64,000 nt of DNA from a virus (IMGVR_UViG_3300036985_002287:30613-94612); one strand, 5' to 3'. Numbered from the stretch's first letter, positions 6,016 through 57,628 are shown. A program made the numbers and translations. Notes: generated by a model from the letters alone, not told the origin.

Positions 6016-6218
6016 TTTACTTTCCTCGGTTTCGGGAAATATCCTTCGGCAAGGTCGTCAGTGATAGAATTCATAAAGCGTGTCATACTTTCGACATCGC
6101 CGTGTGCCTGGAAAAATTTCTTCTTGGCACCGTCGGCAAACCGTGTAACAGTGATATGAAGATACTTATCGATGTCTTCAGTAACTTCAAAATCAAACAG
6201 TGTCATTAATTTCTGCAT
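6012..6218 (-). CDS. hypothetical protein
   Basis: 68 aa ORF. Confidence 0.5.
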   Translation of the reverse strand: MQKLMTLFDFEVTEDIDKYLHITVTRFADGAKKKFFQAHGDVESMTRFMNSITDDLAEGYFPKPRKVK

Positions 6219-6651
6219 CTTCGGCCTTTAGTTTTCTAAGTCTCAGAACTTCTTTTGTTTCGCCCTTGCTCTTCTTACCATTGCAGGGAGAGCACATAAT
6301 TTGCGTATTGGTAAGATCGTCTGCACCACCCAATGCCCTTGCTTTGATATGATCATGAGTGAATAGAATCTCCTCACCATCACGTACACCATATAGGTTG
6401 AGGTGCCAGGAATCTTGTCCAGGAGATTGCTCCACAGCGAAGAATGTAGCTTCCAAATCGCAGCATACGCACTTCATACCTTTAGCACTCAATCCAGCAC
6501 GAGCAAATGTTCTCATACGGCGAGAGGATACACCTACCCAAATGCCGGATGATCGTTGGATACGGACTCGCTTTTCTTTCCAATGTGTTTTCACATAAGG
6601 AATAATTTCAGAAATGGGTATTACTTCGGATCGAAGGTATCTTTGTGTCAT
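6193..6651 (-). CDS. HNH endonuclease
   Basis: FTHDHIKARALGGADDLTNTQIMCSPCNGKKS = HNH motif; Cys pairs upstream. Confidence 0.8.
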   Translation of the reverse strand: MTQRYLRSEVIPISEIIPYVKTHWKEKRVRIQRSSGIWVGVSSRRMRTFARAGLSAKGMKCVCCDLEATFFAVEQSPGQDSWHLNLYGVRDGEEILFTHDHIKARALGGADDLTNTQIMCSPCNGKKSKGETKEVLRLRKLKAEDAEINDTV

Positions 6652-6809: not shown

Positions 6810-7697
6810 TTAAATTATATTCTTTGCAACAGAGTCCACGATTACTTTCATATGCTTCGGACCTATATCTACACTCTCCGAAAAATCAATTACGAAGTCT
6901 TTTCTTGTTAGTGGATCTTCGAGATATTCTTTAACTAATTTGTTCCAAAATACTAAATTTTCTTGTCGAGCATCTTTAGGAAGCACAATACAATACCCAT
7001 CTGCATCTTGCCATAGTGGATAAACTTTATTTAGAATAGGAACGAATTCCGAATCGTGTAAAGGTTTTCTATTGCTCAAAGCAAGTAATCGTAACTTTCC
7101 TGCATCTATCATCGGCTTTGCAAGTATCAACGGAAGTATAGCAACGTCGACATGACCACCCATTACATCTGTCATTAACGGTGCACCACCTTTATATGCG
7201 ACCAATGTGGGTGGCCGCCTTCCATTTTTAAGATCTGTAAACTTGAATAGTTCTTCCATTAGAATCTTTTGTGCTGGTGCTCCATAGCCAAATGATTTTT
7301 TGGTGTCTACTTTGCTCAACTCGTTTTGAACTTCTGACAACGATTGTAGGCTATTAGCAGACCCAGTTACAAGTGCAAAGATCGACGTTCTTATCATAGA
7401 TACATATTCAAATTGATAATTAGGGTTCTTATTTTGATAGACTGCTACAGTAGCCACAGTACCAAAACCGATTGTGCTGTCGTCGGCAGAAGCAACTTCT
7501 CCCATCCCTATTAAGCCGTCTGCACCACTTTTATAATTTGCAATAATATTGATTCCTCGTGAATCGGCATATTTTTGAAAATGTCGAAAGGCAATATCGG
7601 CGCCGCCGCCTGGCGGAAATGGTATAATGGCTTTATATGGGTCGGCGTGAGCAATGGCGCATATTAAAATTAACGCTGCGATTATAATTTTTCTCAT
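6810..7697 (-). CDS. TctC/Bug-family periplasmic solute-binding protein (tripartite tricarboxylate transporter receptor)
   Basis: Signal peptide MRKIIIAALILICAIAHA; PFPPGGGADI..., YKGGAPLMTDVMGGHVDV, AGKLRLLAL family signatures. Confidence 0.8.
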   Translation of the reverse strand: MRKIIIAALILICAIAHADPYKAIIPFPPGGGADIAFRHFQKYADSRGINIIANYKSGADGLIGMGEVASADDSTIGFGTVATVAVYQNKNPNYQFEYVSMIRTSIFALVTGSANSLQSLSEVQNELSKVDTKKSFGYGAPAQKILMEELFKFTDLKNGRRPPTLVAYKGGAPLMTDVMGGHVDVAILPLILAKPMIDAGKLRLLALSNRKPLHDSEFVPILNKVYPLWQDADGYCIVLPKDARQENLVFWNKLVKEYLEDPLTRKDFVIDFSESVDIGPKHMKVIVDSVAKNII

Positions 7698-15098: not shown

Positions 15099-15304
15099 TG
15101 TCTGAATTGAGGTTTATCGAATTTAGCTAAACTTGCCGCCACAATATCTTTTGCATCACTCTCTGACAAACTGTTTGTTTCTTCCCATTGTTCATTATCT
15201 TCGTTCCAAATAAGAATGCCACCTAGGTTATTGATTTTGTAGAAACCCGAAATAGTATGAACCAATACATATTGAAGAATGATTGCTTTGTGTGCTTGCA
15301 TCAT
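15095..15304 (-). CDS. hypothetical protein
   Basis: 69 aa ORF; ATGA overlap with GGDEF gene. Confidence 0.5.
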   Translation of the reverse strand: MMQAHKAIILQYVLVHTISGFYKINNLGGILIWNEDNEQWEETNSLSESDAKDIVAASLAKFDKPQFRH

Positions 15305-15978
15305 CTATTTATTACTTCTGGAGGTATTCCATGATATAGGTCGATACCGGACTTCTTAGCATAATACATGGCGCAATCAGCGTGATACATCAATGAAGTA
15401 TAATCTTCACCGTGAATTGGGTAAGTAGTCACTCCTACACTGAGACCAACACTAAGATTAGTTCCAGAAATCTCCATTGGCAATTCGACACTCTTTATTA
15501 GATTAATATATTCCACATCAGATAATTCGCCCTTGACTAATATAACAAATTCGTCGCCGCCCAGCCTAGCTGAAATATCACCTTTTCTTAAAGAATCCTG
15601 CATTCTTTCAGCTATGATCTTTAATACGTCGTCGCCCACACGATGCCCGTAGGTATCGTTTATGTATTTGAATTTACATAAATCTATCAATACTAGTTGA
15701 AATTTATCTCCTCGCTTAATAAATTTCTTAAATTCCTTATTAAAGGAACTTCGATTGAATAACCCTGTGAGTGCATCATATTTTGCAAGAGTGACCATTT
15801 CGGACCAGGAAGAATATTGTATAACCATAGGGATAAGTAATAAACATGATACCACAGCATCTACTAAATAATGTAGAACATGTGGCAACACGATTAGTTC
15901 ATGCATAAGATGGATGATAGATATACACCCGGAGAATGCTAGGCATAATACCGTAGCATGAATGATATTTGCTTTCAT
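15301..15978 (-). CDS. membrane-anchored GGDEF-domain diguanylate cyclase
   Basis: Two N-terminal hydrophobic helices; YDALTGLFNR, HRVGDDVL, RLGGDEFVIL (GGDEF) motifs. Confidence 0.8.
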   Translation of the reverse strand: MKANIIHATVLCLAFSGCISIIHLMHELIVLPHVLHYLVDAVVSCLLLIPMVIQYSSWSEMVTLAKYDALTGLFNRSSFNKEFKKFIKRGDKFQLVLIDLCKFKYINDTYGHRVGDDVLKIIAERMQDSLRKGDISARLGGDEFVILVKGELSDVEYINLIKSVELPMEISGTNLSVGLSVGVTTYPIHGEDYTSLMYHADCAMYYAKKSGIDLYHGIPPEVINR

Positions 15979-17869: not shown

Positions 17870-18084
17870 ACCATGTGATCCCTGAAGGTTCCTGCGGGGT
17901 ATTTTAATTTAAGAACTATTTCTAATTCCTCATCGTCAACACAGAATACAAATTGTGTAAGCGGTCCTACTCCTCTAGGATCTATCTCTATTTTTCTAAA
18001 TATAGGCACTCCTACCTCTTCTTTTAACCATTTTTCCTTCATCTGCGCTATTGACGAGATGCATGTATAAGACATAATTCGCAT
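17866..18084 (-). CDS. hypothetical protein
   Basis: 72 aa ORF. Confidence 0.5.
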   Translation of the reverse strand: MRIMSYTCISSIAQMKEKWLKEEVGVPIFRKIEIDPRGVGPLTQFVFCVDDEELEIVLKLKYPAGTFRDHMV

Positions 18085-18845
18085 TATACGCCCTTTATTA
18101 GTTGTAGCATATCGGGAATTCTAGTATGTGAATTCTTACTCCCTAACAATATATACATTCGTTTCCCTACATCAGAATTTAATATCATTACAAGACACCC
18201 TCCTGCTGGATTAGTAAATCCAGTTTTAGATAATTGTATATCAAACTGCGATGTTAGTGGATTCGTATTATGTAATTTAATCAATCTCTTATTTGTCCGT
18301 ATTTCGGCATTAGGCTGACCCGATATTTCACTAATTGTATTATTTAATGTAGCCACCATTAACAATTTCAATAAATCATGTGCTGTGCTAACATTGCCTT
18401 TATCTAATCCGGTGGGTTCTTGATATCGGGTGCTTGTCATTCCTAACTCTGCTGCCTTATCATTCATTTTCTCTACACAAGATGGCAAGTTGATACATAA
18501 TATTTGTGCTGCGAAATTATCCGATCTAACAAGTGCTAGTGTCAATAATTCACGTCTAGATAGATTATGTGTTGTCCTCGGTATGCTACTTTGTACTTGA
18601 CGCTTATTGGGTATAGATAAAGCTTCGGTCAAGTCTTGTTCGGACGAAAGAAGCGCAACCATTAATTTACTGATACTTGCTATAGGGCGTATTGTATCGC
18701 CGTCTTGTTCTTTCAGTATTGTGCCATCCTCTGTAGCCACAATATAACTTTTCGAACTAAAGGGTATTACTCGATGATTGCCTTTGGCCGCAGCATTACT
18801 TATGAGAAGAGCAGATGCACATATAGCTAGAATAAGAGTCTTCAT
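18084..18845 (-). CDS. secreted D-alanyl-D-alanine carboxy/endopeptidase (S11, PBP5/7-like)
   Basis: Signal peptide; SISK (SxxK), SDN, KTG active-site triad motifs in correct order. Confidence 0.75.
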   Translation of the reverse strand: MKTLILAICASALLISNAAAKGNHRVIPFSSKSYIVATEDGTILKEQDGDTIRPIASISKLMVALLSSEQDLTEALSIPNKRQVQSSIPRTTHNLSRRELLTLALVRSDNFAAQILCINLPSCVEKMNDKAAELGMTSTRYQEPTGLDKGNVSTAHDLLKLLMVATLNNTISEISGQPNAEIRTNKRLIKLHNTNPLTSQFDIQLSKTGFTNPAGGCLVMILNSDVGKRMYILLGSKNSHTRIPDMLQLIKGV

Positions 18846-18851
18846 CTCTTT

Positions 18852-18880
18852 ATTATACTACATATATTATTTAATGTCAA
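18852..18880 (-). promoter_or_regulatory. perfect promoter TTGACA-N17-TATAAT, 6 nt from ATG
   Basis: tgtcaa 18875-18880; attata 18852-18857; ATG 18845. Confidence 0.7.
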
Positions 18881-19260
18881 CCTGTGTTCAGGCCTACTGC
18901 CGGTGCCGTCCATAATGGACCTACAGAGGTTGGGCCGTATGTTACGACAGGGAAAGATATTGTACTACCATCATTTATTTGGAAACTAATGCGGCCACCG
19001 CGATCAGTAATATCTAAAAGGTTATCTGTTACCTTAACCATACAGGTGCCTATCGTATCATCTACAGGAATGAATTGTCGAGTTTCGAATATTACGCTTG
19101 CTCGATTTTCGGGATACCAATTAAAGGAGATAATGTTACTTAGTTCCGATCCTACGACCTTAAAGTAACTGGGAACTCCACTTGTTATAACTATCGCTAC
19201 TAGGCCGGAACCTGCAAATGGGCTGGTCGGTAATGCTTGAACTTCGTCTATGGTTGTCAT
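18877..19260 (-). CDS. hypothetical protein
   Basis: 127 aa ORF. Confidence 0.5.
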   Translation of the reverse strand: MTTIDEVQALPTSPFAGSGLVAIVITSGVPSYFKVVGSELSNIISFNWYPENRASVIFETRQFIPVDDTIGTCMVKVTDNLLDITDRGGRISFQINDGSTISFPVVTYGPTSVGPLWTAPAVGLNTG

Positions 19261-19272
19261 CCACTATTTATC

Positions 19273-19530
19273 TTATCGCCGATACTTATTTTTAAGGTCG
19301 TCAGAAATATAGGATATTCGCATATGCTCTGCAAAATATGAATCGCGTAATTTTATAACAGATGCATATGAAGAATTGATTTTACCCCACACTGTGGCCT
19401 GCCCGCTTTCTACATCAGTAAAAAGATGTACAATTTCAAACTCATCCTTATCTAATGCATGAACTTTTTCTAGTAAAATAGACCCGCCGTCTACATCAGA
19501 CAAGAATTCTACCAATATCAGTTCGTTCAT
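19273..19530 (-). CDS. hypothetical protein
   Basis: 85 aa ORF. Confidence 0.5.
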   Translation of the reverse strand: MNELILVEFLSDVDGGSILLEKVHALDKDEFEIVHLFTDVESGQATVWGKINSSYASVIKLRDSYFAEHMRISYISDDLKNKYRR

Positions 19531-19829
19531 ACGCTAATTGATTTTTTAAATATAATACGAAGCAGAGATGGTTTTAATTTAGTGCATAGTGGTTTATACA
19601 CTTCGCCTTCTATCACAAATTCTTGAACATCTAGTTCTTTTATAGCATTGATACAGGATAGTTCTTTATTAAGATGAACGTCAAGATATATTGTATCGTC
19701 AGTTGTCTTTATGACTATTTCGTCTATCGATTGCCTGTTGGTTTCGATTATGGAACGTTCGTTAACAAGCCCATTTACTGATAGAATAGACAGCACTAGA
19801 ATAATTACAATTAAATATTTCACCGACAT
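19527..19829 (-). CDS. hypothetical secreted/membrane protein
   Basis: 100 aa; N-terminal hydrophobic segment YLIVIILVLSILSV. Confidence 0.5.
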   Translation of the reverse strand: MSVKYLIVIILVLSILSVNGLVNERSIIETNRQSIDEIVIKTTDDTIYLDVHLNKELSCINAIKELDVQEFVIEGEVYKPLCTKLKPSLLRIIFKKSISV

Positions 19830-19832
19830 TCC

Positions 19833-19861
19833 TTGATATTGAACATATTATAGTATATAAT
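19833..19861 (+). promoter_or_regulatory. plus-strand promoter TTGATA-N17-TATAAT
   Basis: ttgata 19833-19838, tataat 19856-19861; interdigitated with divergent minus-strand promoter. Confidence 0.55.
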
Positions 19862-19875
19862 ATTATTTTAATCAA
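19847..19875 (-). promoter_or_regulatory. promoter TTGATT-N17-TATAAT
   Basis: aatcaa 19870-19875; attata 19847-19852; AAGGA SD before ATG 19829. Confidence 0.55.
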
Positions 19876-19915
19876 CAGAAGTAAGATAAATAAGTACATA
19901 CTTAACGGAATTCAG

Positions 19916-21055
19916 ATGAGACAGAATGTTTATATAATTTACGATAAGCAGACAGAATATGTTTGTGACAAGATTTGCAAGAAGTTAGATGTAGATGGAA
20001 AATTCATGTCTGAAAATTCCGAATTAACAACCGAAATTTTAGTATCGATAGCAAAGAATTGTAGCAGTAGATACTTCTATATTATTAAAACAGATAAAGA
20101 AATTATATTCGATAAATTTGATTTTTCATATATACCTAAGGTCGTAAAATGGGACAGAAATTATATTCATGTATGGAATAATGATACATCTGTGAGATTA
20201 TATGACTCTGTCGAAGTATTAGACGAACCCGAAATATTTAACGACACTGCACTAAAGAATGGTACAATTAAGATTAAAAATATTGCCGATAAGATATACA
20301 CATATCCGTATTTTGATATAATATTTTTAAGCTACGACGAAGAATATAGCGATGCAAACTATAAGAAATTATTAGATAGATTTCCTAAGGCAAAAAGATT
20401 ACACGGAGTAAAAGGTATCTTGAAGGCTCATAAGATGGCGGCCCGTCTGGCAGAGACCGATATGTTTTATATTATTGATGCCGATGCTGAAATCGTATCT
20501 ACATTTGATTTTTCATACCAACCACAGTCACTCGAAAGGCAATCTGTTCATGTCTGGTACTCGCATAATCCAGTTAATGATTTGGAATATGGGTATGGTG
20601 GCGTAAAATTATTTCCCACACTTGGATTAATAAGATATATAGGTTCTCCCGTAGACTTTACTACCACCGTATCTAAGAGTCTTGTTGTAAAAGAGGAAGT
20701 TAGCAATATCACCCGATTTAACACAGATCCTTTTTCAGCCTGGAGAAGTGGTTTTAGAGAGTGTGTGAAATTAGCATCTAAGATAATACCTAATCATAAT
20801 AATGAAGAAACGGAATACAGATTAAATGAGTGGTGTACTAAGGGAGCAGATAGAGAATTTGGAGAATTTACTATTAAGGGTGCAGTCGAAGGTGCTGTAT
20901 ATGGTAAAATGTTTAGCACTCGCCCTGAACGGCTCTCGATGATAAATGATTTTGCATGGTTAGAAGATAGATTTAGTAGAAATATTAAAATTGTTAAATG
21001 GGATTGGTCCCGTAAAACAAACAAAACATTGACAAAAGACTGTTCCGATTCTTAA
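19916..21055 (+). CDS. hypothetical protein, AT-rich plus-strand gene (possible DxD glycosyltransferase-like)
   Basis: 379 aa; IIDADAE motif; K/I/N/Y/F/D-rich composition; one of only three plus-strand genes. Confidence 0.55.
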   Translation: MRQNVYIIYDKQTEYVCDKICKKLDVDGKFMSENSELTTEILVSIAKNCSSRYFYIIKTDKEIIFDKFDFSYIPKVVKWDRNYIHVWNNDTSVRLYDSVEVLDEPEIFNDTALKNGTIKIKNIADKIYTYPYFDIIFLSYDEEYSDANYKKLLDRFPKAKRLHGVKGILKAHKMAARLAETDMFYIIDADAEIVSTFDFSYQPQSLERQSVHVWYSHNPVNDLEYGYGGVKLFPTLGLIRYIGSPVDFTTTVSKSLVVKEEVSNITRFNTDPFSAWRSGFRECVKLASKIIPNHNNEETEYRLNEWCTKGADREFGEFTIKGAVEGAVYGKMFSTRPERLSMINDFAWLEDRFSRNIKIVKWDWSRKTNKTLTKDCSDS

Positions 21056-22554: not shown

Positions 22555-22579
22555 AAAAAGGACCCGAAGGTCCCTTTTT
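22555..22579 (-). terminator. intrinsic terminator
   Basis: AAAGGGACC-TTCG-GGTCCTTTTT on minus strand directly after stop of HNH gene. Confidence 0.65.
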
Positions 22580-23165
22580 AAGTGGCATGCCCAGTTGGCT
22601 GTGGCAGAACAGTTACTAAGTGATCCGGCCAATCCACATAAAACTTCCATTCTTCATCTCTAATATGCAAGGGCAAAGTTTTGCGCTTTGCAAGAATTTC
22701 GTAGTATGTGGGTTTAACAGGCTTCTTTTTTGGCACAATAGTATGATCATCACCCTTATCGCTATTACACGCCTTGCAGGATGTACATACATTGTTCCAA
22801 ACAGTCTTACCACCATGCGAACGCGGAATAACATGGTCGAGTGTTAAGTCGACAAACTTTACCTTACCTGCACGATCCCTGCACCTGCTTGTTGTCTGTA
22901 ACTGGCAGGTAAAATCGTCTCGCAGATACACATTGGCGCGGCTGTACTTCAATGTCTTAGCCCACTTAACCTGTTCTGTCATGATAATGATAGAAGGGAT
23001 AGCCATATCTAAATATTGCGATCTGGCAGTCCAGCTATCGTATGACTTCAATACCTTCACTTTATCAGTGAAAACTAATCTCATAGCGACTTGCCAGCTC
23101 ACAACAGAGAGCGGGATAAGCGATAAGGGCATGCCATTGGCATTTAAAAGTAAGGTATCCGACAT
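22578..23165 (-). CDS. HNH endonuclease
   Basis: LTLDHVIPRSHGGKTVWNNVCTSCKACNSDKG. Confidence 0.8.
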   Translation of the reverse strand: MSDTLLLNANGMPLSLIPLSVVSWQVAMRLVFTDKVKVLKSYDSWTARSQYLDMAIPSIIIMTEQVKWAKTLKYSRANVYLRDDFTCQLQTTSRCRDRAGKVKFVDLTLDHVIPRSHGGKTVWNNVCTSCKACNSDKGDDHTIVPKKKPVKPTYYEILAKRKTLPLHIRDEEWKFYVDWPDHLVTVLPQPTGHAT

Positions 23166-26634: not shown

Positions 26635-27099
26635 TTACACGGGCATTTTGCCGTCAATTAACCAAACATAGGTAGGATATGTTACCGTCTCTTCAATAAT
26701 GGTAGAAATAATATTCCAATTGCCGCCACCTAATCCGGCGCCAATTAAAGGGATATGTAATTCGGACACAACATCTTCTAAGAATGACACAGCATGATTG
26801 ATTTGCTCGAAGCAGGACTGTATTGCATCATAACTACAATTTCTTGTAGGCATGCCAAATCCGTCCTGCGTAATTGCATTCCATATGACAAGCTCGGCGG
26901 TAGGACAGAAAGGGTATGCAAAACCTAAATCGAGTCCTTCCTCTTCGTGGATAGTGACATAGTCGGTATACGCTCCGGGATATTTCCTCTTTACTGCTAA
27001 GGCAACACCGGAACCCATAACACCTTGTGCATTGCATCCGTGAACAATATGACCGGATGTCACATCAAGTAAATTGCCAGTTCTATAAATAAGTTTCAT
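26635..27099 (-). CDS. macro-domain protein (ADP-ribose binding/hydrolase)
   Basis: TGNLLD...HGCNAQGVMGSGVALAVKRKYP...IGAGLGGG; start at MKLIYRTG (1-nt overlap with upstream stop). Confidence 0.75.
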   Translation of the reverse strand: MKLIYRTGNLLDVTSGHIVHGCNAQGVMGSGVALAVKRKYPGAYTDYVTIHEEEGLDLGFAYPFCPTAELVIWNAITQDGFGMPTRNCSYDAIQSCFEQINHAVSFLEDVVSELHIPLIGAGLGGGNWNIISTIIEETVTYPTYVWLIDGKMPV

Positions 27100-27395
27100 T
27101 AAATCTTCCTTGTTGTATTTCGAAAATTGTTGTCCCAAACCGGATCAAGTAAAGGTTTAAATTTGGGATAGTATGCATCATGCAAATCGACGAGCGCATC
27201 TATTGCCAATACCGCATCAAATGGAAAACCTTGCCTATTTGGTCGATCAGAATATGTTAAGCTAGTTAATAACTCTCTGCCTGCCTTGTATCCCCAATGT
27301 AAACGCAATTTATTTTGTATATGCGGAAATTTTTCCAAACGCTCAATCAAATTGATTACTTCCTCGTTTTGATTCTTGTTTTGATCTTTTGTCAT
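27099..27395 (-). CDS. hypothetical protein
   Basis: 98 aa ORF. Confidence 0.5.
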   Translation of the reverse strand: MTKDQNKNQNEEVINLIERLEKFPHIQNKLRLHWGYKAGRELLTSLTYSDRPNRQGFPFDAVLAIDALVDLHDAYYPKFKPLLDPVWDNNFRNTTRKI

Positions 27396-28627: not shown

Positions 28628-28980
28628 TTCTGGCTATCTCCCGGCATAACACGATAATTATCTTCTACACTATCCGGTGTACTAACTTCCAGAATAGTGC
28701 CTGCTTCAAGACAGATAACTTGATGCGGAGATAGTGGTGGATTATGGTGTATCATCCCTGCTTCTAAAGTACATTCAAATATCTGTGCATTACTTGTCTG
28801 AATATATCTGACTAAGAACTTGCCACTCATGATACGCCATGTTTCTTCTTTAACTGAATGAAAGTGCATACTGAATCTAGAATCTTTATCGAAATGCATT
28901 AGTTTACTACAATATTTGTCATTAGATATCCAAATTTCTTCCGATCCCCAACCTTTTTTTACTCGGCCATTTAATCTCAT
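28624..28980 (-). CDS. cupin-fold protein (sugar isomerase/epimerase-like)
   Basis: WGSEEIW...MHFHSVKEETW...G pattern of small cupins; ATGA-coupled to the epimerase. Confidence 0.5.
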   Translation of the reverse strand: MRLNGRVKKGWGSEEIWISNDKYCSKLMHFDKDSRFSMHFHSVKEETWRIMSGKFLVRYIQTSNAQIFECTLEAGMIHHNPPLSPHQVICLEAGTILEVSTPDSVEDNYRVMPGDSQK

Positions 28981-29186
28981 ATATTACCTCTTCCTATTCT
29001 GCTGTAACCTAACTCACTCATTGTGTCACGCCGACCTTCTCGCTTGTCGTTTTCGTATTGTTGAATGACAAGCATGGCAAACTTTTCCAATTCTGATTCA
29101 CTAAAATTCCAGGGCTGTTTATGGTACTTTTCATAATCTCTTTGCCCGCCGGCCTTAAGAGTAAGTTGTCGAATTCGTTCATTCAT
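28977..29186 (-). CDS. MNE-paralog family member (divergent)
   Basis: MNERIRQLTLKAGG...KFAMLVIQQ; ATGAATGA junction with upstream paralog. Confidence 0.5.
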   Translation of the reverse strand: MNERIRQLTLKAGGQRDYEKYHKQPWNFSESELEKFAMLVIQQYENDKREGRRDTMSELGYSRIGRGNI

Positions 29187-29397
29187 CACTAACTCCAAAA
29201 TGTTCTAAAATAGAAGGCCGGACTAATCTTGCCTCACCGTGTGTCGCTGCATGATTACCAATGTCAGCACACTCCTGCACGATAAGTTCGGCAAACTTAC
29301 CAAGTTGGATCATGGCGAACTGATTGTCACCTTCTTGTGTGTGCTTGTCTGCATACGCATAGGCTTGCTTTTGCAGGGCTAAAAGTCGTTCATTCAT
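29179..29397 (-). CDS. MNE / FAELIVRE / HFGV paralog
   Basis: MNERLLALQKQ...FAELIVQECA...EHFGVSDE. Confidence 0.55.
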   Translation of the reverse strand: MNERLLALQKQAYAYADKHTQEGDNQFAMIQLGKFAELIVQECADIGNHAATHGEARLVRPSILEHFGVSDE

Positions 29398-29600
29398 TCT
29401 TCAACTCCGAAATGTTTAAACATCGCAACTACCCCTTCATGATCGTGCCCGCAAAACTCACCACATTCCCGAACAATCAACTCGGCGAACTTTTTCATCA
29501 CAGTAGAGTCCAGAGTATCTTTTGGATCGTACATATACACAGCATCACCCCACACGGCAATACCAGCCTGTTCAGCAAGTAGTCGAATTCGTTCGTTCAT
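29394..29600 (-). CDS. MNE / FAELIVRE / HFGVEE paralog
   Basis: MNERIRLLAEQAGI...FAELIVRECG...KHFGVEE. Confidence 0.55.
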   Translation of the reverse strand: MNERIRLLAEQAGIAVWGDAVYMYDPKDTLDSTVMKKFAELIVRECGEFCGHDHEGVVAMFKHFGVEE

Positions 29601-29770
29601 TCTTCTACTCCAAAGTGTTGTTTAATCACCAACTTATATTCAAGCGCCCGTGGATCAATTGGCGGCTCTACTTTTTCATGAACTAGTTGGTGTCTACCTT
29701 CAGTGTTTGTTACACCAAGTAATACACCATTATGATATACTTCCCATTCGTATCTATTTTCGTCAATCAT
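29597..29770 (-). CDS. 57-aa protein sharing only the HFGVEE tail
   Basis: MIDENRYEWEVYHNG...KQHFGVEE; ATGA overlaps at both ends; below track cutoff. Confidence 0.45.
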   Translation of the reverse strand: MIDENRYEWEVYHNGVLLGVTNTEGRHQLVHEKVEPPIDPRALEYKLVIKQHFGVEE

Positions 29771-29982
29771 TCTTCTACTCCAAAGTGTTCTCTTATAATC
29801 TCTGCACCAGAAATACCGTAATCATTAACACGCAGGTTTTTAACTTGTTCGGCACATTCCCGAACAATAAGTTCGGCAAACTTTTCTTGTTGTTCTACCC
29901 ACGCTTCACAATATTCTCTGCCGTGAAAATCTAAAAACTTAATATCAGCCTGCGTGGCAAGTTCTTTAATTAGTTCATTCAT
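29767..29982 (-). CDS. MNE / FAELIVRE / HFGVEE paralog
   Basis: MNELIKELATQADI...FAELIVRECA...EHFGVEE. Confidence 0.55.
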   Translation of the reverse strand: MNELIKELATQADIKFLDFHGREYCEAWVEQQEKFAELIVRECAEQVKNLRVNDYGISGAEIIREHFGVEE

Positions 29983-30193
29983 GCTTCGGCTCCAGACTAC
30001 CGCGTTCTAACCAAAGCGCAATGGCATTGTTGGATGTGTGGGATACATGTTCAATCCCTTTACTATCCACAAAAATAATGTCTTTACCGTCAAACTTTAG
30101 GTGACCATTCTCTGGTCCGATGATCATGTCATACGAATCATTGTGTGTCAGAAAACCTAACACAACGGGCCGCAGGATTGTATATTCATTCAT
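29975..30193 (-). CDS. small protein with EPKHE tail
   Basis: MNEYTIL...SLEPKHE; ATGAATGA junctions. Confidence 0.5.
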   Translation of the reverse strand: MNEYTILRPVVLGFLTHNDSYDMIIGPENGHLKFDGKDIIFVDSKGIEHVSHTSNNAIALWLERGSLEPKHE

Positions 30194-30425
30194 GCTTCGG
30201 CTCCCGAGGGTCTTTGAAATACAATTTTTGATAATCAGGTGTAGATTTACCCAATGGTTGGATCATTGGTAATGTTCCGCCCAATTCAATTACTTGCCTA
30301 CGCAACTCTGTTATTTCTTCTAAAGAAGCCAGGTATAATGTGTCCCATGGCTTACCGTAGTTCAACGCATTTTCCAATACAGGCACAATGTCCTGGTCTC
30401 TGATTTGTTTTACTTGTTCATTCAT
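30186..30425 (-). CDS. small protein with EPKHE tail
   Basis: MNEQVKQIRDQ...PREPKHE; start trimmed to the MNE ATG. Confidence 0.5.
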   Translation of the reverse strand: MNEQVKQIRDQDIVPVLENALNYGKPWDTLYLASLEEITELRRQVIELGGTLPMIQPLGKSTPDYQKLYFKDPREPKHE

Positions 30426-30624
30426 GCTTCGGCTCCACACCCTCTGGGTTTAACAGTTGAAAACAAAAATACTCCTCGCAATCGCTGCCAGGATCTCTCT
30501 TTTCTTTATGCAGGCGACACCAACCATCGCCGGTGTAGCAACCTTCAGCATCACCGTTGAAGTTATAGTAAGCACAGTGGTCACAGCAAGTGAACCCTGG
30601 AGCGCAATCAGGACATAGTTTCAT
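30418..30624 (-). CDS. Cys-rich small protein with EPKHE tail
   Basis: MKLCPDCAPGFTCCDHCAYY...GVEPKHE; N-terminal extension of track ORF displaced by 30626-30802. Confidence 0.5.
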   Translation of the reverse strand: MKLCPDCAPGFTCCDHCAYYNFNGDAEGCYTGDGWCRLHKEKRDPGSDCEEYFCFQLLNPEGVEPKHE

Positions 30625-30625
30625 T

Positions 30626-30802
30626 TCATTTCCACATTGTGGCTCCGCACTTGGTGCAATCATACGCAGTATCATTATGTCCATGACCAGCAAAACGCCA
30701 ATAGTGTTCACAGGTTCGTTGTTTCTCTTTTAAATCTACTGCTGCTTTAATCTTGGCACGATGATCCAGCACTAGTTGCTTTTCTTCTTCAGTTAGTTTC
30801 AT
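30626..30802 (-). CDS. 58-aa zinc-ribbon-like protein
   Basis: MKLTEEEKQLV...CEHYW...HGH...DCTKCGATMWK; ATGA overlap with upstream stop; below track cutoff. Confidence 0.45.
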   Translation of the reverse strand: MKLTEEEKQLVLDHRAKIKAAVDLKEKQRTCEHYWRFAGHGHNDTAYDCTKCGATMWK

Positions 30803-31275: not shown

Positions 31276-31306
31276 TTTGTTTCCTAAAAATAAAGGGGTT
31301 ACACAC

Positions 31307-31335
31307 ATTATAGCGTATAACCCCTAATATTGCAA
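31307..31335 (-). promoter_or_regulatory. promoter TTGCAA-N17-TATAAT
   Basis: ttgcaa 31330-31335; attata 31307-31312. Confidence 0.6.
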
Positions 31336-32897: not shown

Positions 32898-32926
32898 ATT
32901 ATATGTAATTGATTATTAATTGTCTA
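32898..32926 (-). promoter_or_regulatory. promoter TAGACA-N17-TATAAT
   Basis: tgtcta 32921-32926; attata 32898-32903. Confidence 0.55.
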
Positions 32927-33152
32927 GTGGATTAAGGTTACTTTTGAAATGGTTGTTTACTACAGAAGCAAAATATTCTCGACGATATCGGTCTTTGGTC
33001 ATAATAACATCGGAGCATTCTTTAACAATTAATCTAGCAAATTCTTCTAATGCTTCTTCAGGGCAAATTACATAAGCAGGTGCTGACCCAGATACTACTC
33101 GAACGAACGGTATACCGGCCTGTTCGGCAAGTTGTTTCAGTTGTTCATTCAT
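32916..33152 (-). CDS. MNE-paralog family member
   Basis: MNEQLKQLAEQAGIPF...FARLIVKECS. Confidence 0.5.
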   Translation of the reverse strand: MNEQLKQLAEQAGIPFVRVVSGSAPAYVICPEEALEEFARLIVKECSDVIMTKDRYRREYFASVVNNHFKSNLNPLDN

Positions 33153-33363: not shown

Positions 33364-33807
33364 TTAGATCGAATACTCGTAATTAACGGTATCCGTGTTT
33401 TCCCTAAAAATCGCAGCACCATTCTTTAAATGGAATCGGCGAGCCATAGGCGTTTTAGGACTTAGTGTGACAAATCGTGTTACTGTTGGATATTGTATGC
33501 GAATGCTATCGACAGCCTTTAGTAACAGTTCGGCGCCTGCACCTGGTTTGTAACTCCATATTGTATAAAACACCGCCATAGTTGGATTATCGGTATTAGT
33601 TGATAGTTCGGCAACGTTCTCGGGAATCTCAGAATGGAAGCTGACACATACCATAGCATCAGGCGTACTATTCGATAAATCGTTGGATAGTGCAATAACT
33701 ATACGGCCGTCACTTACTCGGAACTCAGTTGGAATTTCCGGGCGGACAGGATCGTCTTTGATAAAGGATAGAAAGGAATTTAGGGTGTCTTTTATGTAAT
33801 GTATCAT
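33364..33807 (-). CDS. possible GNAT-fold acetyltransferase
   Basis: KPGAGAELLLKAV and ARRFHLKNGA resemble the GNAT acetyl-CoA-binding segment; weak. Confidence 0.45.
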   Translation of the reverse strand: MIHYIKDTLNSFLSFIKDDPVRPEIPTEFRVSDGRIVIALSNDLSNSTPDAMVCVSFHSEIPENVAELSTNTDNPTMAVFYTIWSYKPGAGAELLLKAVDSIRIQYPTVTRFVTLSPKTPMARRFHLKNGAAIFRENTDTVNYEYSI

Positions 33808-34200: not shown

Positions 34201-34452
34201 TCATTCTTCAACTCCAAAATGTCCTTCGAGTGTTCTTATCGCAACGAGTAACCCATCGTCGAATGCTCGATCATACACTTGACCAGCGGTGCCAACTTTG
34301 ATCGCTCTTACTTCTTCAATTTGATTAATACTTTCACGAATGATTAATTCTGCGAATTTTCTGTAGTCAAAATCACGTAACCCCTCGTGATCGCTTCCAT
34401 AAGGGGCAATCAATCCAGCTTTTCTTGCTAGGTCTCTCGTAATATCAATCAT
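34201..34452 (-). CDS. MNE / FAELIIRE / HFGVEE paralog
   Basis: MIDITRDLARKAGL...FAELIIRES...GHFGVEE; start trimmed. Confidence 0.5.
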   Translation of the reverse strand: MIDITRDLARKAGLIAPYGSDHEGLRDFDYRKFAELIIRESINQIEEVRAIKVGTAGQVYDRAFDDGLLVAIRTLEGHFGVEE

Positions 34453-36516: not shown

Positions 36517-37439
36517 TCTTTTAGATCTACCTTGTTCACAACAAAAGGCTCTATTTCCTTAAACTCGGTTTCAGTGGCCTGGTAGAATTTCCATTCATTT
36601 AATTCGACACAAGTTAATCCAGCCCATTTCTTCGGCGCCACACCATGCTGCGAATATCCGCCTGTATTCGACCAGCGACATTGCCATGCGCCGGTATCGA
36701 TACAAGTCTGCCCTACTATAGTAATTGGTTGATGTAATGTTGTATGGCCACAGATGATGTGTGATAGCTCATCATTAAACATACCAGTCATGTCGTTATA
36801 TTTAATTACTCTGACTATCTTATCTCTATTACTTAAATCGCGTTCATACATCTCGTAGAATATACATCTATGCCATGTAAGTGAATCACCTTCATAACAT
36901 GGAACAGTTGCTATTTTTCTTACGTCATCCGGGTCAGATAAAATTTCATCCGAAAGAGGTACCCGTACCTCCGGGAATTCTGCGTGAATGATATGAAACT
37001 TTTTACCATTCTTTACATCTACTGTAATAAGGTAAGGCAATTCCTCTACAAGTGGCAGTAGATCAAACAGGGCAACACTATGATCGGAAGGTATCAGTGC
37101 CGGATTCTTTTTATCGTTTATTGCTTCTATTCCCCATTGTCCACCATTATTAAACCACATACTATCAGTCCCGTGCGGCCAGTGGAATTTTTCAAGCATC
37201 ATCTGTTCATGATTACCTAACACAGCATGAAACCAAGGCTCTCTAATTAGTTCCAAACATTTGAGATGGTCGGGACCTCGGTCGACCAAGTCACCAACGG
37301 AAATCATACGGTCGATGGTAGTATCGAAATTAATATTCTTTAGCAAATTCTGAAGCACATCGTAGCATCCGTGGAGGTCTCCGATCACGAAATCGCGACC
37401 TAATAAATTCGTCTCTAATGTCTTTAATGCATCCTTCAT
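36513..37439 (-). CDS. Ser/Thr protein phosphatase-family metallophosphoesterase (lambda PP / ApaH-like)
   Basis: GDLHGCYD, GDLVDRGP, GNHE motifs in order. Confidence 0.8.
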   Translation of the reverse strand: MKDALKTLETNLLGRDFVIGDLHGCYDVLQNLLKNINFDTTIDRMISVGDLVDRGPDHLKCLELIREPWFHAVLGNHEQMMLEKFHWPHGTDSMWFNNGGQWGIEAINDKKNPALIPSDHSVALFDLLPLVEELPYLITVDVKNGKKFHIIHAEFPEVRVPLSDEILSDPDDVRKIATVPCYEGDSLTWHRCIFYEMYERDLSNRDKIVRVIKYNDMTGMFNDELSHIICGHTTLHQPITIVGQTCIDTGAWQCRWSNTGGYSQHGVAPKKWAGLTCVELNEWKFYQATETEFKEIEPFVVNKVDLKD

Positions 37440-37705
37440 TCTTTAATTCCCCATACTTTCTTTGTAGCTTCTAATGTAAATGCACCACTCGTTGTAATGC
37501 GAGTTAAAAAATCTTCCTCTTCCTGTGTTAGTACGGGAATCGGTCTAATCTCATACCAAAATTCGTAAGAATCGTTTTTACCGAAATCTTCCTCTTGTCT
37601 TGCACACTTATCGCAAAATGGATGATCGCCCGCAAACTGAGTTGAACGAATCCATACAGTGGGAGCATTGCATATTATACAAAATTCCTCTTTTATTTTT
37701 GTCAT
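37436..37705 (-). CDS. small zinc-ribbon-like protein
   Basis: 89 aa; CIIC...CDKC. Confidence 0.5.
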   Translation of the reverse strand: MTKIKEEFCIICNAPTVWIRSTQFAGDHPFCDKCARQEEDFGKNDSYEFWYEIRPIPVLTQEEEDFLTRITTSGAFTLEATKKVWGIKE

Positions 37706-37980
37706 TCTTCAACTCCGAAGTGTTCACTAATGCTATCTCTGATTGTTTGGGCAGTATCATCATTATCCCAATTAAACTCCAATGCGTTCTTATGTTCTTG
37801 GTGGACAATACCCAAACATTCCCGAACAATAAGTTCGGCGAACTTTTCCGGGCTAAACTTAGTTTCGGTAGTAGTTACATAACGATAAGGCGGCCGATCA
37901 TTATCCCATGCACCCGAAATTTCCCGAGTTTCGATTGTGATAATAGATTGTTTTTCAAGTTCTTGCAGTCGTTTATTCAT
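37702..37980 (-). CDS. MNE / FAELIVRE / HFGVEE paralog
   Basis: MNKRLQELEKQ...FAELIVRECL...EHFGVEE; start trimmed (ATGA overlap). Confidence 0.5.
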   Translation of the reverse strand: MNKRLQELEKQSIITIETREISGAWDNDRPPYRYVTTTETKFSPEKFAELIVRECLGIVHQEHKNALEFNWDNDDTAQTIRDSISEHFGVEE

Positions 37981-50773: not shown

Positions 50774-51000
50774 ATTATTCTCTTATTACTTTTATGCCGT
50801 ATTTTGGCATGTTTTTTTCTTATAGGTCTTATATAAAAATCTGGATCATGCGAATCCGCGAATATTGAGTGGGCACATATAAGCCCGTTCAACATTCCGT
50901 GCATATATTGTACACTAGGGTCGCCGGCAATTACACAATCCGTTTGTATACCGATCATGTTCTCTAGAGTACTAAGATCCTTTTGTAATCTCTCATTCAT
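50770..51000 (-). CDS. hypothetical protein (MNE start)
   Basis: 76 aa; ATGAATGA junction with the DpdA-like gene. Confidence 0.45.
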   Translation of the reverse strand: MNERLQKDLSTLENMIGIQTDCVIAGDPSVQYMHGMLNGLICAHSIFADSHDPDFYIRPIRKKHAKIRHKSNKRII

Positions 51001-52561
51001 CTTCTTCAGCTAAATGTACATCGTCCATATCAGCCATATCTTGCACTGTTGGTAATTCATCAACTGGTTCTGTAGTAGGTTGTCCCCACATATCGACATT
51101 TTCTATAGTAGTAACAGTTTTCTTATCACCAAAACTAATACTTTCCAAGAAGTCCTTATAAGTTTCTAACATTTTATATGGGTCCTTATTATTTGGATCA
51201 AATAATTCCTCAACAAACTTATTAAAATAAATTATATCATTCGGAACAAAATCGCTCTTATTAGAAACCTTACCTTTCTTCCCTCTATACTGATACCAAT
51301 CTCTAAAATCTACACTTGGCAGCGTAGCATGAGCTATGTCTGCCAACCGATTGATTTCTTGAACTGCATGTATATGATTATACACATTGTGGGCCATAAC
51401 AAGAGCATAGCTAGTTGTATCCCAGCTTGTTTTACCTATCTTTTTATTCTTATTTGTATCAGTTGGACCCATAACACAAATGTCACCACTTGTTAATCTG
51501 TCATTAATGGGACTTTGATAAGGCATGGCATATCTTGTATTTTTCAATCCCTTATCATCCAAGCCCTTACCCATAGAATAAGTCAGTCTATCTGACGAGA
51601 AGTGAGTGTAGTCGTAAGATAAAGCATATCCACCTGCTGCAACAAACGGTGATGCAGCATCAAAGCTAATGCTAATGTTAGGATTGTGATACTTCTTAAT
51701 TTGTCTTTCGATGGATGTTAAGTAACAAGCCCAATCGAGTCTGCCAATACCCAAGAAGTGAATCCAGTCTTTACCTTCCAGTAAACCATCATCACGTAAG
51801 TTCAGTAATCGTTCGAGTGTTACTCTCATACGGCGCATATTACAACCTGCAAATGCCCAGCCTTCTAATGTCCTATCACGCGAATAACCCAATGCTTCTA
51901 CTATATCTGGTTGGCTAAACACTTTTACAGATTCGTACCACACTTTGGAATTTTCATTATCGCTACCCGATAATACATTAAGAAATTTTGTAGCACCGGG
52001 AATACGATTCTTCATGAAGTAATGAAGATTACATTCAGTAACATCCAGACATTCTTGAAAACTTGTTAAACCAGTCTTTGCACTAAATGGAGGTTTAGCG
52101 GCAAATGCAGGTACATCTAATGTCATAGACCAATCCGAAGTGTGTTCTAAGTATCGTAGAATTTCTTCTCTTAGCTTATCGCCCTCGGGACCTTTAACAG
52201 TTTTCCAATCTAACTTAATAACACCGGTCGCTACCTGAAACCCGCCCGAATCGCCAACAATAATTGTTTTCTCGCGATTACGCTTATGGATCATCGGCTC
52301 TTTAATATCACATCTATCCAGACGTCTTTCGGCGTGCCCTGCTGAAAATAATCCGTAGCCATAATGATAGTAAGAATTATCAGGTTCTAAAAAGTCCAAA
52401 CCTTGTATACCATGTTCGAATTTTTCCGGCACACGTTCTTTAGGAATAAATGTCGGATCAGAAAGATCCTTTCCTAAGTGAGTAGTATAGAACCCGCTGA
52501 TTGCAGGTAGATACTTAGCCCACTTACCGTCGTCGTGACGCTTTGTTAGATTAATACCCAT
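50993..52561 (-). CDS. tRNA-guanine-transglycosylase-fold protein, DpdA-like DNA transglycosylase candidate
   Basis: IIVGDSGGFQV (TGT catalytic DSGGFQ), WAFAGCNM and IHFLGIGRLD resembling TGT YAIGGL / LMGVG segments; acidic tail. Confidence 0.6.
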   Translation of the reverse strand: MGINLTKRHDDGKWAKYLPAISGFYTTHLGKDLSDPTFIPKERVPEKFEHGIQGLDFLEPDNSYYHYGYGLFSAGHAERRLDRCDIKEPMIHKRNREKTIIVGDSGGFQVATGVIKLDWKTVKGPEGDKLREEILRYLEHTSDWSMTLDVPAFAAKPPFSAKTGLTSFQECLDVTECNLHYFMKNRIPGATKFLNVLSGSDNENSKVWYESVKVFSQPDIVEALGYSRDRTLEGWAFAGCNMRRMRVTLERLLNLRDDGLLEGKDWIHFLGIGRLDWACYLTSIERQIKKYHNPNISISFDAASPFVAAGGYALSYDYTHFSSDRLTYSMGKGLDDKGLKNTRYAMPYQSPINDRLTSGDICVMGPTDTNKNKKIGKTSWDTTSYALVMAHNVYNHIHAVQEINRLADIAHATLPSVDFRDWYQYRGKKGKVSNKSDFVPNDIIYFNKFVEELFDPNNKDPYKMLETYKDFLESISFGDKKTVTTIENVDMWGQPTTEPVDELPTVQDMADMDDVHLAEEDE

Positions 52562-56645: not shown

Positions 56646-57054
56646 TTAGTTGCAGGCGCATCGGGCAACTTCCTTGCCACGATAATCAGCAATTGCTGCC
56701 TTCACTGCATCCTCTGCAAGAATTGAGCAATGTATCTTAACCGGAGGTAGTGCCAATTCTTCTGCAATTTGCGAATTCTTAATAGTTGCTGCTTCGTCTA
56801 GTGTCTTACCTTTTACCCATTCGGTAACTAAAGAACTCGACGCAATAGCTGACCCGCAACCATATGTCTTAAATTTTGCATCTTCGATGATGCCTGTAGC
56901 GGGATTTACTTTTATTTGGAGTTTCATTACATCTCCGTTAACCGCACGCTGGGGCGCCGACAATGCCGGTTCCAACGTGCGTATTCTCCTTATCTAAATT
57001 CCCGACATTACGGGGGTTTTCATAGTGGTCAATCACTTGTTTACTATAGGACAT
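56646..57054 (-). pseudogene. iscU: IscU Fe-S scaffold gene interrupted by a 7-nt insertion (in-frame TAA after Cys of GAPACG)
   Basis: ATG 57054: MSYSKQVIDHYENPRNVG...GAPACG-stop; removing TAACGGA restores ...ACGDVMKLQIKV...TYGCGSAIASSSLVTEWVKGK...PPVKIHCSILAEDA. Confidence 0.7.
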
Positions 57055-57628
57055 TTTTAGTTCTCCTTCTCTCATGAGCAAGTTTCATGGATATAGATCT
57101 CTTGAGACGTGTTTCTTCGGAGACCTCCTTACCTCTGTTTCCTGCTTGAATCTTTAATTTAGTTTCCGCGGAATGTTGTTTACCTAACATGGGGCCGGGT
57201 TTACCATATCCGTGATGTTTTTCTCCAGAAAACTGTTTTAATTTTGTTTTTTGTTCTTCAGACATAATCCTGCCAAAACAAACATTCTTCTCCCCGAGCA
57301 TAGATTCGCTTTTCTTACGTTTTTCTTCTTCTGTCCAGGCTCTTCCACCCTTAGAATGGCCTATCTTACCCACATTACCTTCGCCGCCATCGGATTTATT
57401 CTGTAATATGCCTGTATTAATATCTTTTCTTCCCCACCACGCAATCATCCTGCGTTCTATCGCCCAGGCACCTATCTCGGATAATTTAGATTCAAGAATC
57501 ACAATTTTCGACTTATCGTTAGGTCTGTTTATGTTTGTGTGCTTTTCCCAGGCTCTCCTGTTTTTACCTTTCCCTATGTAGTAAGGTTTACCGGAGTTAC
57601 CTATATATGCATATACATAGAACATCAT
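57044..57628 (-). mobile_element. GIY-YIG homing-endonuclease gene (Seg-like, NUMOD3-type repeats)
   Basis: YVYAYIGNSGKPYYIGKG (GIY-YIG); repeated G..HSxETKxK motifs; free-standing between sigma-like gene and iscU, overlapping both. Confidence 0.75.

Follow-up and report, generated by a model that had tools for sequence, protein, structure and literature searches.

In the module theory of Susskind and Botstein, phages evolve by exchanging modules through short linker or boundary homologies at gene borders, such as the boundary sequences of lambdoid phages. In T4-type phages, promoter-early stem-loops (PeSLs) are mobile regulatory cassettes of hyperplastic regions, in which short repeated promoter/terminator units lie between small non-essential genes and drive insertions, deletions and replacements among close relatives (Arbiol et al. 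2010, PMC2839356; Comeau et al. 2014, PMC4122927). Here we describe a tandem array of small genes at positions 28977-30802 of a 64,000-nucleotide (nt) stretch of viral DNA (IMGVR_UViG_3300036985_002287:30613-94612; hereafter the window), which encodes members of an unnamed protein family with three short conserved segments, referred to as anchors, and two variable segments between them (V1 and V2). Comparison with related phages revealed half-gene replacements with borders in the anchors as well as gain, loss and exchange of whole small genes between identical stop/start junctions. We consider it probable that the anchors are both the core of the protein and sites of recombination, and that the C-terminal anchor, or tail, is at the same time the ribosome-binding site of the next gene.

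PeSLs are the closest analogue of the array junctions, as in both cases small open reading frames (ORFs) appear to be shuffled by repeats that also have a role in expression. While PeSLs are intergenic, combine a sigma-70-like promoter with a terminator hairpin and act on transcription, the array repeats are coding and would act on translation, and the array has an additional intragenic crossover site at which halves of one protein family would be re-assorted. Exchange at gene boundaries through short sequences common to otherwise unrelated modules also recalls the modules of Botstein, but the boundary in the array is one defined element of 20-35 nt, with many copies per genome and in thousands of contigs, and is linked to a single protein family as well as to a ribosome-binding site. 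Two further systems share features with the array. Stop/start overlaps of the type ATGA or TAATG couple translation in bacterial and phage operons. The IPI-III locus of T4, a highly variable region, encodes varied small internal proteins with a conserved N-terminal capsid-targeting leader, the DNA of which is thought to favour shuffling.

The array encodes small proteins with three conserved anchors

All genes of the array, and all seven ORFs that the initial annotation of the window had grouped by a common pattern from an MNE start to an HFGVEE end, are located on the minus strand at coordinates that were confirmed (Table 1). All-against-all blastp comparison showed the seven to be pairwise 28-43% identical with E values mostly of 1e-4 to 1e-8, a similarity that is significant and not at chance level, and a profile built from them retrieved exactly these seven among 565 window ORFs in hmmsearch (E 1e-20 to 1e-31; best non-member, 0.098). 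The grouping into one family thus holds, whereas the common tail does not: it is missing in 28977-29186, which also has a degenerate central motif (KFAMLVIQQ) and a stop that shares ATGA with the start of a cupin gene, and it is degenerate in 32916-33152.

The anchors comprise N-terminal MNERIRELAEQAG, central KFAELIVREC and C-terminal I..HFGVEE. An AlphaFold2 model of member 29394-29600, computed from 78 sequences (mean predicted local distance difference test score (pLDDT) 83.4; predicted template modelling score 0.71), contains helices at residues 3-11, 32-50 and 55-64, with low confidence at 21-30 and V1 in the lowest-confidence region. The near-invariant residues (N2, R4, I5, L8, A9, Q11, G13, Y22, K37, F38, A39, E40, L41, I42, V43, E45, C46, H63, F64, G65 and V66) sit in or beside these three helices; H63 and F64 close the last of them, and G65 and V66 come after. 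Most simply read, the model makes the anchors the core of a small three-helix fold and V1, ahead of the central helix, and V2, behind it, its variable surface. The initial annotation had overlooked this predicted coincidence of conserved segments and core helices.

Like the T4 locus, the array lies in a highly variable region and encodes small proteins that differ widely but share a conserved N-terminal segment, and by analogy MNERIRELAEQAG could be a capsid-targeting leader of proteins that are packaged and injected to counter host defences. L-A-E in the consensus resembles the (L/I)-x-E site of the T4 prohead protease, and otherwise the argument is one of analogy. We regard a leader as very unlikely, given that the N-terminal helix is confidently modelled within the fold (pLDDT 88 for residues 1-10) and that a leader peptide does not account for the central and C-terminal anchors, which are equally conserved. 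In the array family, unlike in the T4 proteins, conservation extends to three segments, for which a joint fold is predicted.

Cys46 (with Glu45) and His63 are near-invariant in the family alignment and could form a metal-binding or dimer-interface site.

Halves of family genes are replaced at the anchors

Among 297 unique sequences, a sample biased to relatives of the query, 199 V1 clusters and 233 V2 clusters were distinguished. Of the alleles, meaning distinct versions of V1 or V2, the two commonest of V1 are joined to 21 and 29 different V2 clusters, and a single V2 allele is joined to 5 V1 clusters. The V1 modules GLIAPYGSDHEGLRDFDYR or GIAVWGDAVYMYDPKDTLDSTVMK each recur before many unrelated V2 segments, and V2 LGIVHQEHKNALEFNWDNDDTAQTIRDSISE, also present in window member 37702, recurs behind several V1 modules.

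An exact scan of IMG/VR for the EPKHE junction described below led to a 210-kb contig (L085, the same as L008; IMGVR_UViG_3300037487_000968) that is syntenic with the window and about 80-93% identical to it across the common genes (SPFH, 88-aa gene, MMYIHRDD..., MMGT membrane protein, ...CWKVYD, metallophosphatase and others). In four of four family genes at common positions, one half has been replaced by unalignable sequence. L085 9003-9190 combines a new N-half with the C-half of window gene 29394, and L085 8764-9006 the N-half of window gene 29179 with a new C-half. Likewise, L085 8331-8573 carries a new V1 before the C-half of window gene 32916, and L085 10320-10556 the N-half of window gene 34201 before a new V2, both broken at the central anchor. 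The first two replacements enclose a block (window 29270-29492, L085 8879-9101) that is 95% identical, with 11 differences in 223 nt, and runs from AAGTTCGCCGAGTTGATTGT (KFAELIV) of the upstream gene across the stop/start junction to KFAELIVQEC of the downstream gene, with nothing alignable on either side. The central anchor of member 29394-29600 (29463-29492) forms its left-hand breakpoint and that of member 29179-29397 (29269-29298) its right-hand breakpoint. As the borders fall in two successive central anchors, the exchanged unit is 'C-half + junction + N-half', out of register with the genes.

Across all loci, 38 of the 55 internal ends of long similarity blocks (>=100 nt, >=92% identity) lie at most 25 nt from a start codon, central anchor or stop codon, in statistics that are not tree-aware. 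Within family genes the commonest breakpoint is the central KFAELIVREC motif, beyond the termini alone. The initial annotation, which had emphasised conserved termini around variable cores, missed this motif as what appears to be the main intragenic breakpoint.

A codon count between the window and L085, covering 38 codons in the N-half common to gene 34201 and its L085 counterpart, gave 18 synonymous-only and 6 amino-acid changes, and a stretch of 26 residues, RDLARKAGLIAPYGSDHEGLRDFDYR, is identical between the two products. The count indicates purifying selection on this V1 allele, which is hence a functional module under constraint, not a neutral spacer.

Such constraint would also be in line with ordinary tandem duplication and divergence, in which the fold keeps ends and middle alike, ATGA reflects compact packing and the repeats have no role in recombination; the coincidence of the conserved segments with the three predicted helices fits this equally. 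We nevertheless consider duplication alone rather unlikely, as phages that are about 87-93% identical have every family gene at common positions half-replaced, with sharp borders in the anchor, and as V1 and V2 assort in many combinations.

Identical junctions bound whole-gene cassettes

Two types of junction recur in the window, in the numbers that the initial annotation had given. The 20-mer GGAGCCGAAGCATGAATGAA is present in three exact copies compared with 0.01 expected, and the 21-mer CAYTTYGGAGTWGAAGAATGA of the HFGVEE type in five copies (at 29394, 29597, 29767, 34201 and 37702) compared with 0.03 expected. Both consist of a Shine-Dalgarno (SD)-like GGAG inside the upstream ORF, 7 nt and an ATG, with the stop codon inside ATGA or ATGAATGA. 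The three copies of the 20-mer follow each other at ORFs 29975-30193, 30186-30425 and 30418-30636, which indeed all end in EPKHE-stop and are alike in this end only, their bodies being unrelated. These three junctions are mutually identical, and the adjacent junctions at 29597 and 29767 have 23 identical nt, including the rare tail codons CAC and GTA (13 and 11 of 208 tails, respectively). Identity of neighbouring junctions points to local homogenisation as a likely process. The stop of member 29179-29397 overlaps the next start by the 8 nt of ATGAATGA. By itself this octamer is mildly over-represented (12 in the window compared with 5.8 expected; 2 of 100 shuffles reach 12).

The 57-aa ORF 29597-29770 keeps just the HFGVEE tail, as had been noted, on a body unrelated to the family, and over 23 nt its junction is the same as the one of the next upstream gene (29767). 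Its homologues keep the body and end in HFGVEE, SGVEE, SGVE, HGITPMKAKL and others, and two of them run on into a second FGVEE tail. These two, P0281 and P0291, are read-through fusions in which a first (HF/S)GVED tail without a stop is followed by a segment with a second FGVEE tail, as if the junction stop had been lost.

Compared with L085, the MNEYT cassette (window 29974-30204, L085 9711-9941) differs at 1 position in 231 nt (99.6% identity), whereas the flanking Cys-rich gene and SPFH block are 88% and 87% identical, and the borders of the near-identical block are exactly two 20-nt junction repeats. L085, L086 and L087 lack the MNEQV cassette at this position; L110 and L121 have it. From the Cys-rich gene to the first family gene we observed at least five cassette arrangements (window; L085; L086/L087; L107; L121), all on an identical 19-20 nt junction (Table 1), with that of L110 matching L121 as far as the L110 contig reaches. 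In L085 the end of the MNEEF gene reads the junction DNA in the other frame (...FGAEA-stop, the stop being the first TGA of ATGAATGA). As it is read in two frames, the junction is conserved as DNA, not as peptide. An unrelated ORF from the same ATG (after ...ISRNK) at L008 1068-1451 stands in place of window gene 37702-37980 and an 89-aa Cys-rich gene (37436-37705). A scan of metagenomes for the 19-mer junction yielded 17 matches, of which 13 were chance matches in other genes and the only relatives were L107, L108, L110 and L121.

Repeat-bounded insertions, deletions and replacements as known for PeSLs are therefore found between the window and L085, L086, L087, L107, L110 and L121. Together, the half-gene swaps, the 99.6%-identical cassette bounded by repeats and the gain and loss of cassettes between repeats support the earlier description of a cassette-like, recombination-prone family. 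Cassette content differs among relatives, and the family is multicopy in 63 of the 83 loci with a match. For duplication with divergence it is a further difficulty that three unrelated genes carry an identical 20-nt junction read in two frames, and that a 99.6%-identical cassette lies between flanks of 87-88% identity.

L008 has two additional small genes (2367-2804) behind the metallophosphatase gene.

Table 1 Features of the array and its surroundings, with the cassette arrangements of related contigs.
Feature	Position	Strand	Remarks
Family member 1	28977..29186	-	starts MNERIRQLTLKAGG; hmmsearch E 1.6e-22
Family member 2	29179..29397	-	MNERLLALQKQ...KFAELIVQEC...HFGVSDE
Family member 3	29394..29600	-	MNERIRLLAEQAG...KFAELIVREC...HFGVEE; structure modelled
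57-aa ORF	29597..29770	-	body unrelated to family, HFGVEE tail
Family member 4	29767..29982	-	MNELIKELATQAD...KFAELIVREC...HFGVEE
20-nt junction repeat GGAGCCGAAGCATGAATGAA, copy 1	29974..29993	-	SD-like GGAG, 7-nt spacer, ATG; stop within ATGAATGA
MNEYT cassette	29975..30193	-	72 aa, non-family, EPKHE tail
20-nt junction repeat, copy 2	30185..30204	-	exact copy of GGAGCCGAAGCATGAATGAA
MNEQV cassette	30186..30425	-	79 aa, non-family, EPKHE tail
20-nt junction repeat, copy 3	30417..30436	-	exact copy of GGAGCCGAAGCATGAATGAA
Cys-rich 68-aa gene	30418..30636	-	EPKHE tail; first gene joined by 20-nt junction
Promoter-like site TTGCAA-17-TATAAT over 13-bp hairpin and T-run	31294..31335	-	consensus scan only
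Family member 5	32916..33152	-	MNEQLKQLAEQAG...EFARLIVKEC...; degenerate tail (NHFKSNLNPLDN)
Family member 6	34201..34452	-	MIDITRDLARKAGLIAPYGSDHEGLRDFDYRKFAELIIRES...HFGVEE
Family member 7	37702..37980	-	MNKRLQELEKQS...KFAELIVREC...HFGVEE
Cassettes, window			MNEQV + MNEYT
Cassettes, L085			MNEYT + MNEEF + MNEPK
Cassettes, L086 and L087			MNEYT directly behind Cys-rich gene
Cassettes, L107			none
Cassettes, L110 and L121			MNEKV only

The tail is selected at the nucleotide level and overlaps the next start

For Gly, 198 of 208 tails (95%) use GGA compared with 174 of 677 Gly codons (26%) in the bodies of the same genes, which demonstrates selection on the tail at the nucleotide level and is not expected from duplication and divergence. 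Similarly, the tail Val codon is GTT in 86% of tails and 40% in gene bodies. The next ORF is overlapped by ATGA in 188 of 272 non-redundant members and by any overlap in 217, and the gene downstream of the overlap is a family member in only 60 of these 217, a point overlooked previously. In comparisons based on crude ORF sets, an ATGA overlap with the next ORF was found for 75% of the family, whereas among non-family ORFs the share was 28% for small and 22% for large ones; that such overlaps are common outside the family, too, is in favour of compact packing as assumed under duplication. The 5' end is also conserved as DNA (ATGAACGAACGA in 125/272 members), and 146/272 family starts are overlapped by an upstream stop, so that in a tandem pair the junction made up of conserved tail, overlap and conserved 5' end spans tens of nt. 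FGVEE-type tails were present in 18 non-family ORFs, at least 7 of which are clearly unrelated to the family.

These features are those of translational coupling in having a 4-nt ATGA overlap and an SD-like GGAG 7 nt before the ATG inside the upstream gene. They differ from it in that the module is conserved beyond the needs of ribosome binding, is part of a protein C-terminus and travels between unrelated genes. The suggestion of a conserved termination-reinitiation signal, made in the initial annotation, hence gains support from the GGAG-N7-ATGA arrangement, the GGA bias and the 75% ATGA overlap, whereas actual coupling stays a likely reading of these sequences. This suggestion and that of a recombination-prone cassette family are compatible with each other. 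About half of the window's long genes are preceded by AGGA/GGAG-type motifs.

Folding of eight junctions gave no stable or common RNA structure (z-scores -1.85 to +1.30), and thus no shared stem-loop of the PeSL kind. On the coding strand within 28977-30802 there was no promoter-like site of >=10/12, as would be expected of a PeSL promoter, and no strong promoter-like or terminator-like site, so that the array looks like part of one operon. The absence of strong promoter-like sites from the array interior, the unstructured junction RNA, the tail codon bias and the overlap enrichment would all be compatible with a junction that is a termination-reinitiation or ribosome-binding module (GGAG-N7-ATGA) and nothing else, the mosaic being incidental. 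We judge this improbable: GGAG and its spacing suffice for ribosome binding and leave unexplained the 20-23-nt identity, which extends over the spacer and into the first codons of the following gene, the rare codons CAC TTT GGA GTA common to 29597 and 29767, and the breakpoints in the central anchor.

The junction linking the proposed DpdA-like gene to its downstream ORF at 50993-51000 had been described as the same, and this could not be upheld, as the common part is the octamer ATGAATGA alone, without GGAG or other parts of the repeat. The label of this minus-strand ORF (50993-52561, 522 aa) as DpdA-like was likewise not verified by a Pfam match at E<=1e-3; the downstream ORF begins MNERLQKD.... 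Among the non-family ORFs of related loci L005-L084, the C-terminal tetrapeptide LRWS/LKWS is the second commonest (12 + 4) after GVEE (13), with examples at L024 431 and L031 6222, 6595 and 11007. Some of these xWS-stop tails derive from TGGAGTTGA, in which the SD-like GGAG is read in another frame, and may be a further recurrent junction type. In L001, a 318-kb jumbo-phage contig from ENA with one family member, at least 8 small genes (65-96 aa) at 18418-20258 are joined by 4-nt overlaps.

Anchors as candidate recombination sites

Recombination as the mechanism, translational coupling and adaptive diversification are what we infer from the patterns above. In the explanation that we consider probable, a stand-alone phage protein of about 60-90 aa with a predicted three-helix fold would carry V1 and V2 in many alleles each. 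As its anchors are conserved as DNA and repeated several times per genome, they would serve as short homology tracts for recombination. Sequence could be exchanged through homologous recombination or through template switching, both inside one genome and among co-infecting relatives; alternatively, direct repeats at distances of 210-270 nt could undergo slippage or unequal exchange. Crossovers at the central anchor would swap gene halves and re-assort V1 with V2, while crossovers at the stop/start junction would insert, delete or replace whole small genes, including those unrelated to the family. The tail codons GGA-GTT-GAA-GAA-TGA (lineage variant GGAGCCGAAGCATGAATGA) would provide an SD-like GGAG, a 7-nt spacer and an ATG overlapping the stop, so that any gene arriving downstream would receive a ready ribosome-binding site, and the incoming gene would probably be translationally coupled within one operon.

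Several points weigh against recombination at the anchors combined with coupling at the tail. Both are read from sequence comparison. A repeat of 20 nt is short for classical homologous recombination, which makes it necessary to assume replication slippage or a single-strand-annealing recombinase; a Pfam scan of the 40 window ORFs of >=150 aa detected no recombinase, integrase or reverse transcriptase. The fold in itself, through the helix end and its cap, already accounts for part of the conservation of HFGV, and the location of breakpoints in anchors is partly expected, because similarity can be scored or persist only in conserved DNA. With regard to an adaptive motive, it is speculation that the multicopy, varied and modular pattern in an accessory region fits host-directed or anti-defence proteins.

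Finally, the sequences compared are all metagenome assemblies, in which anchors repeated within genomes could cause chimeric joins, and related phages co-occur in lakes. That the mosaics are assembly artefacts of this kind is nonetheless highly improbable. The junction architecture and several of the arrangements recur in independent samples, assemblies and projects (IMG/VR L085-L087; JGI/ENA L107, L108, L110, L121; ENA L001-L003), ORFs are intact across every join, and the exact repeats measure just 20-30 nt, whereas the k-mers of final metagenome assemblies are usually longer.

More tentatively, and with the odds rather against it, the family could be a scaffold with two surface modules that are re-assorted among paralogs and co-infecting lake phages, its tail being a frame-tolerant translation adaptor for any incoming small gene. 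If so, combinatorial scaffold and adaptor together would give freshwater phages fast-evolving, host-directed small proteins, for example against host defences. Already under the explanation that we consider probable, the array would be an unusually clean natural case of modular shuffling at short repeats, both intragenic (half-swaps at a 30-nt motif) and intergenic (20-nt junction). The same nucleotides would encode a helix end, bind the ribosome for the next gene and serve in recombination, tying gene mobility to immediate expression. For structural and interaction work, the family offers a defined scaffold with thousands of natural variants, and for annotators of viral metagenomes a recognisable marker of highly variable regions in large freshwater phages.

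Two known systems for gene or sequence variation were considered and rejected. The array resembles an integron in its tandem promoterless small genes, recurring junction and cassette content that varies among relatives. Its junction is a 20-nt unstructured coding overlap compared with the structured recombination site of 60-140 nt in integrons, and neither an attC-like hairpin nor, among the 40 scanned window ORFs, a tyrosine-recombinase integrase was found. A diversity-generating retroelement was dismissed, as the scanned ORFs contain no reverse-transcriptase domain and the variable segments are unalignable and of unequal length, and hence not point-mutated copies.

The family is large and almost confined to uncultured phages

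At least 7,870 proteins match the family profile at E<=1e-3 (5.8 billion proteins searched; 8,000 candidates scored), all of them hypothetical metagenome proteins without a Pfam domain. When 1.84 billion representatives at 50% identity were scanned exhaustively with HMMER, 8,715 clusters reached E<=1e-3 and 1,513 reached E<=1e-10. With few exceptions these measure 60-160 aa and align across the whole profile, which makes the family a stand-alone small protein. With this number of clusters, and without a Pfam or PHROG entry or a member in the cultured phages searched, it is among the larger unnamed families of environmental phages. A profile scan of 80 IMG/VR loci and 4 assembly loci recovered 294 copies, all on the same strand, with two or more copies within about 12 kb in the multicopy loci and a maximum of 13 copies in 12 kb; 194/296 members start with MNE and 112/296 end exactly in HFGVEE.

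The collection of bacterial and archaeal genomes contained 18 matches, all on contigs of metagenome-assembled genomes (551 nt to 38 kb), mostly from freshwater lakes; mixed phyla are assigned to these, so that no host can be inferred from them. The family is almost confined to uncultured phages, and the named sample sources are freshwater lakes. Window members had no Pfam match at or below E 0.01, and among 78 family members one matched WhiA_N at E 0.007 and one matched PHROGs v4 at E 0.009. The best E value was 0.42 in a sequence profile search of the PDB and 3.3 in a Foldseek search of the PDB, and a fold search of BFVD returned uncharacterised proteins of uncultured Caudovirales only (best E 3.5e-3). 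In 50,697 deposited phage records there was no DNA match by megablast or blastn, and tblastn with two members found none even at E<=1. Window protein P0002 has no exact-sequence record and NCBI cluster members have no informative name; a full-text literature search for the family motifs yielded nothing relevant.

Genome context of the array

The window belongs to a large phage genome, with genes for a family-B DNA polymerase, an ATP-dependent ligase, a 5'-3' exonuclease and a sigma-factor-like protein. It also encodes a ClpB-like ATPase, radical-SAM proteins, sugar epimerases, an SPFH protein, a metallophosphatase, HNH and NUMOD3 endonucleases, and GGDEF and macro domains; structural or protease genes were not found in the window. 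Upstream of the array, the closest strong promoter candidate lies between the SPFH gene and a 169-aa gene (31294-31335), and as a composite with its hairpin recalls the PeSLs of T4-type phages. Further strong promoter-like sites are located at 32926-32898 and 36516-36488.

Three homing-endonuclease-type genes on the minus strand (6193-6651, 22578-23165 and 57044-57628), two of them HNH and one with a NUMOD3 motif, do not adjoin the array; as a speculation, they could stimulate repair-associated exchange between co-infecting relatives. Auxiliary genes unusual for a phage were observed at 15301-15978, 26635-27138, 61080-63296, 63304-63828, 18084-18845, 6810-7697 and 33364-33807 (all on the minus strand). 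This set includes a GGDEF diguanylate cyclase, a macro domain and a ClpB-like double AAA+ ATPase adjoining a protein with a DnaJ C-terminal domain, together with a D-Ala-D-Ala carboxypeptidase, a TctC-like solute-binding protein and a malonyl-CoA decarboxylase-like fragment.

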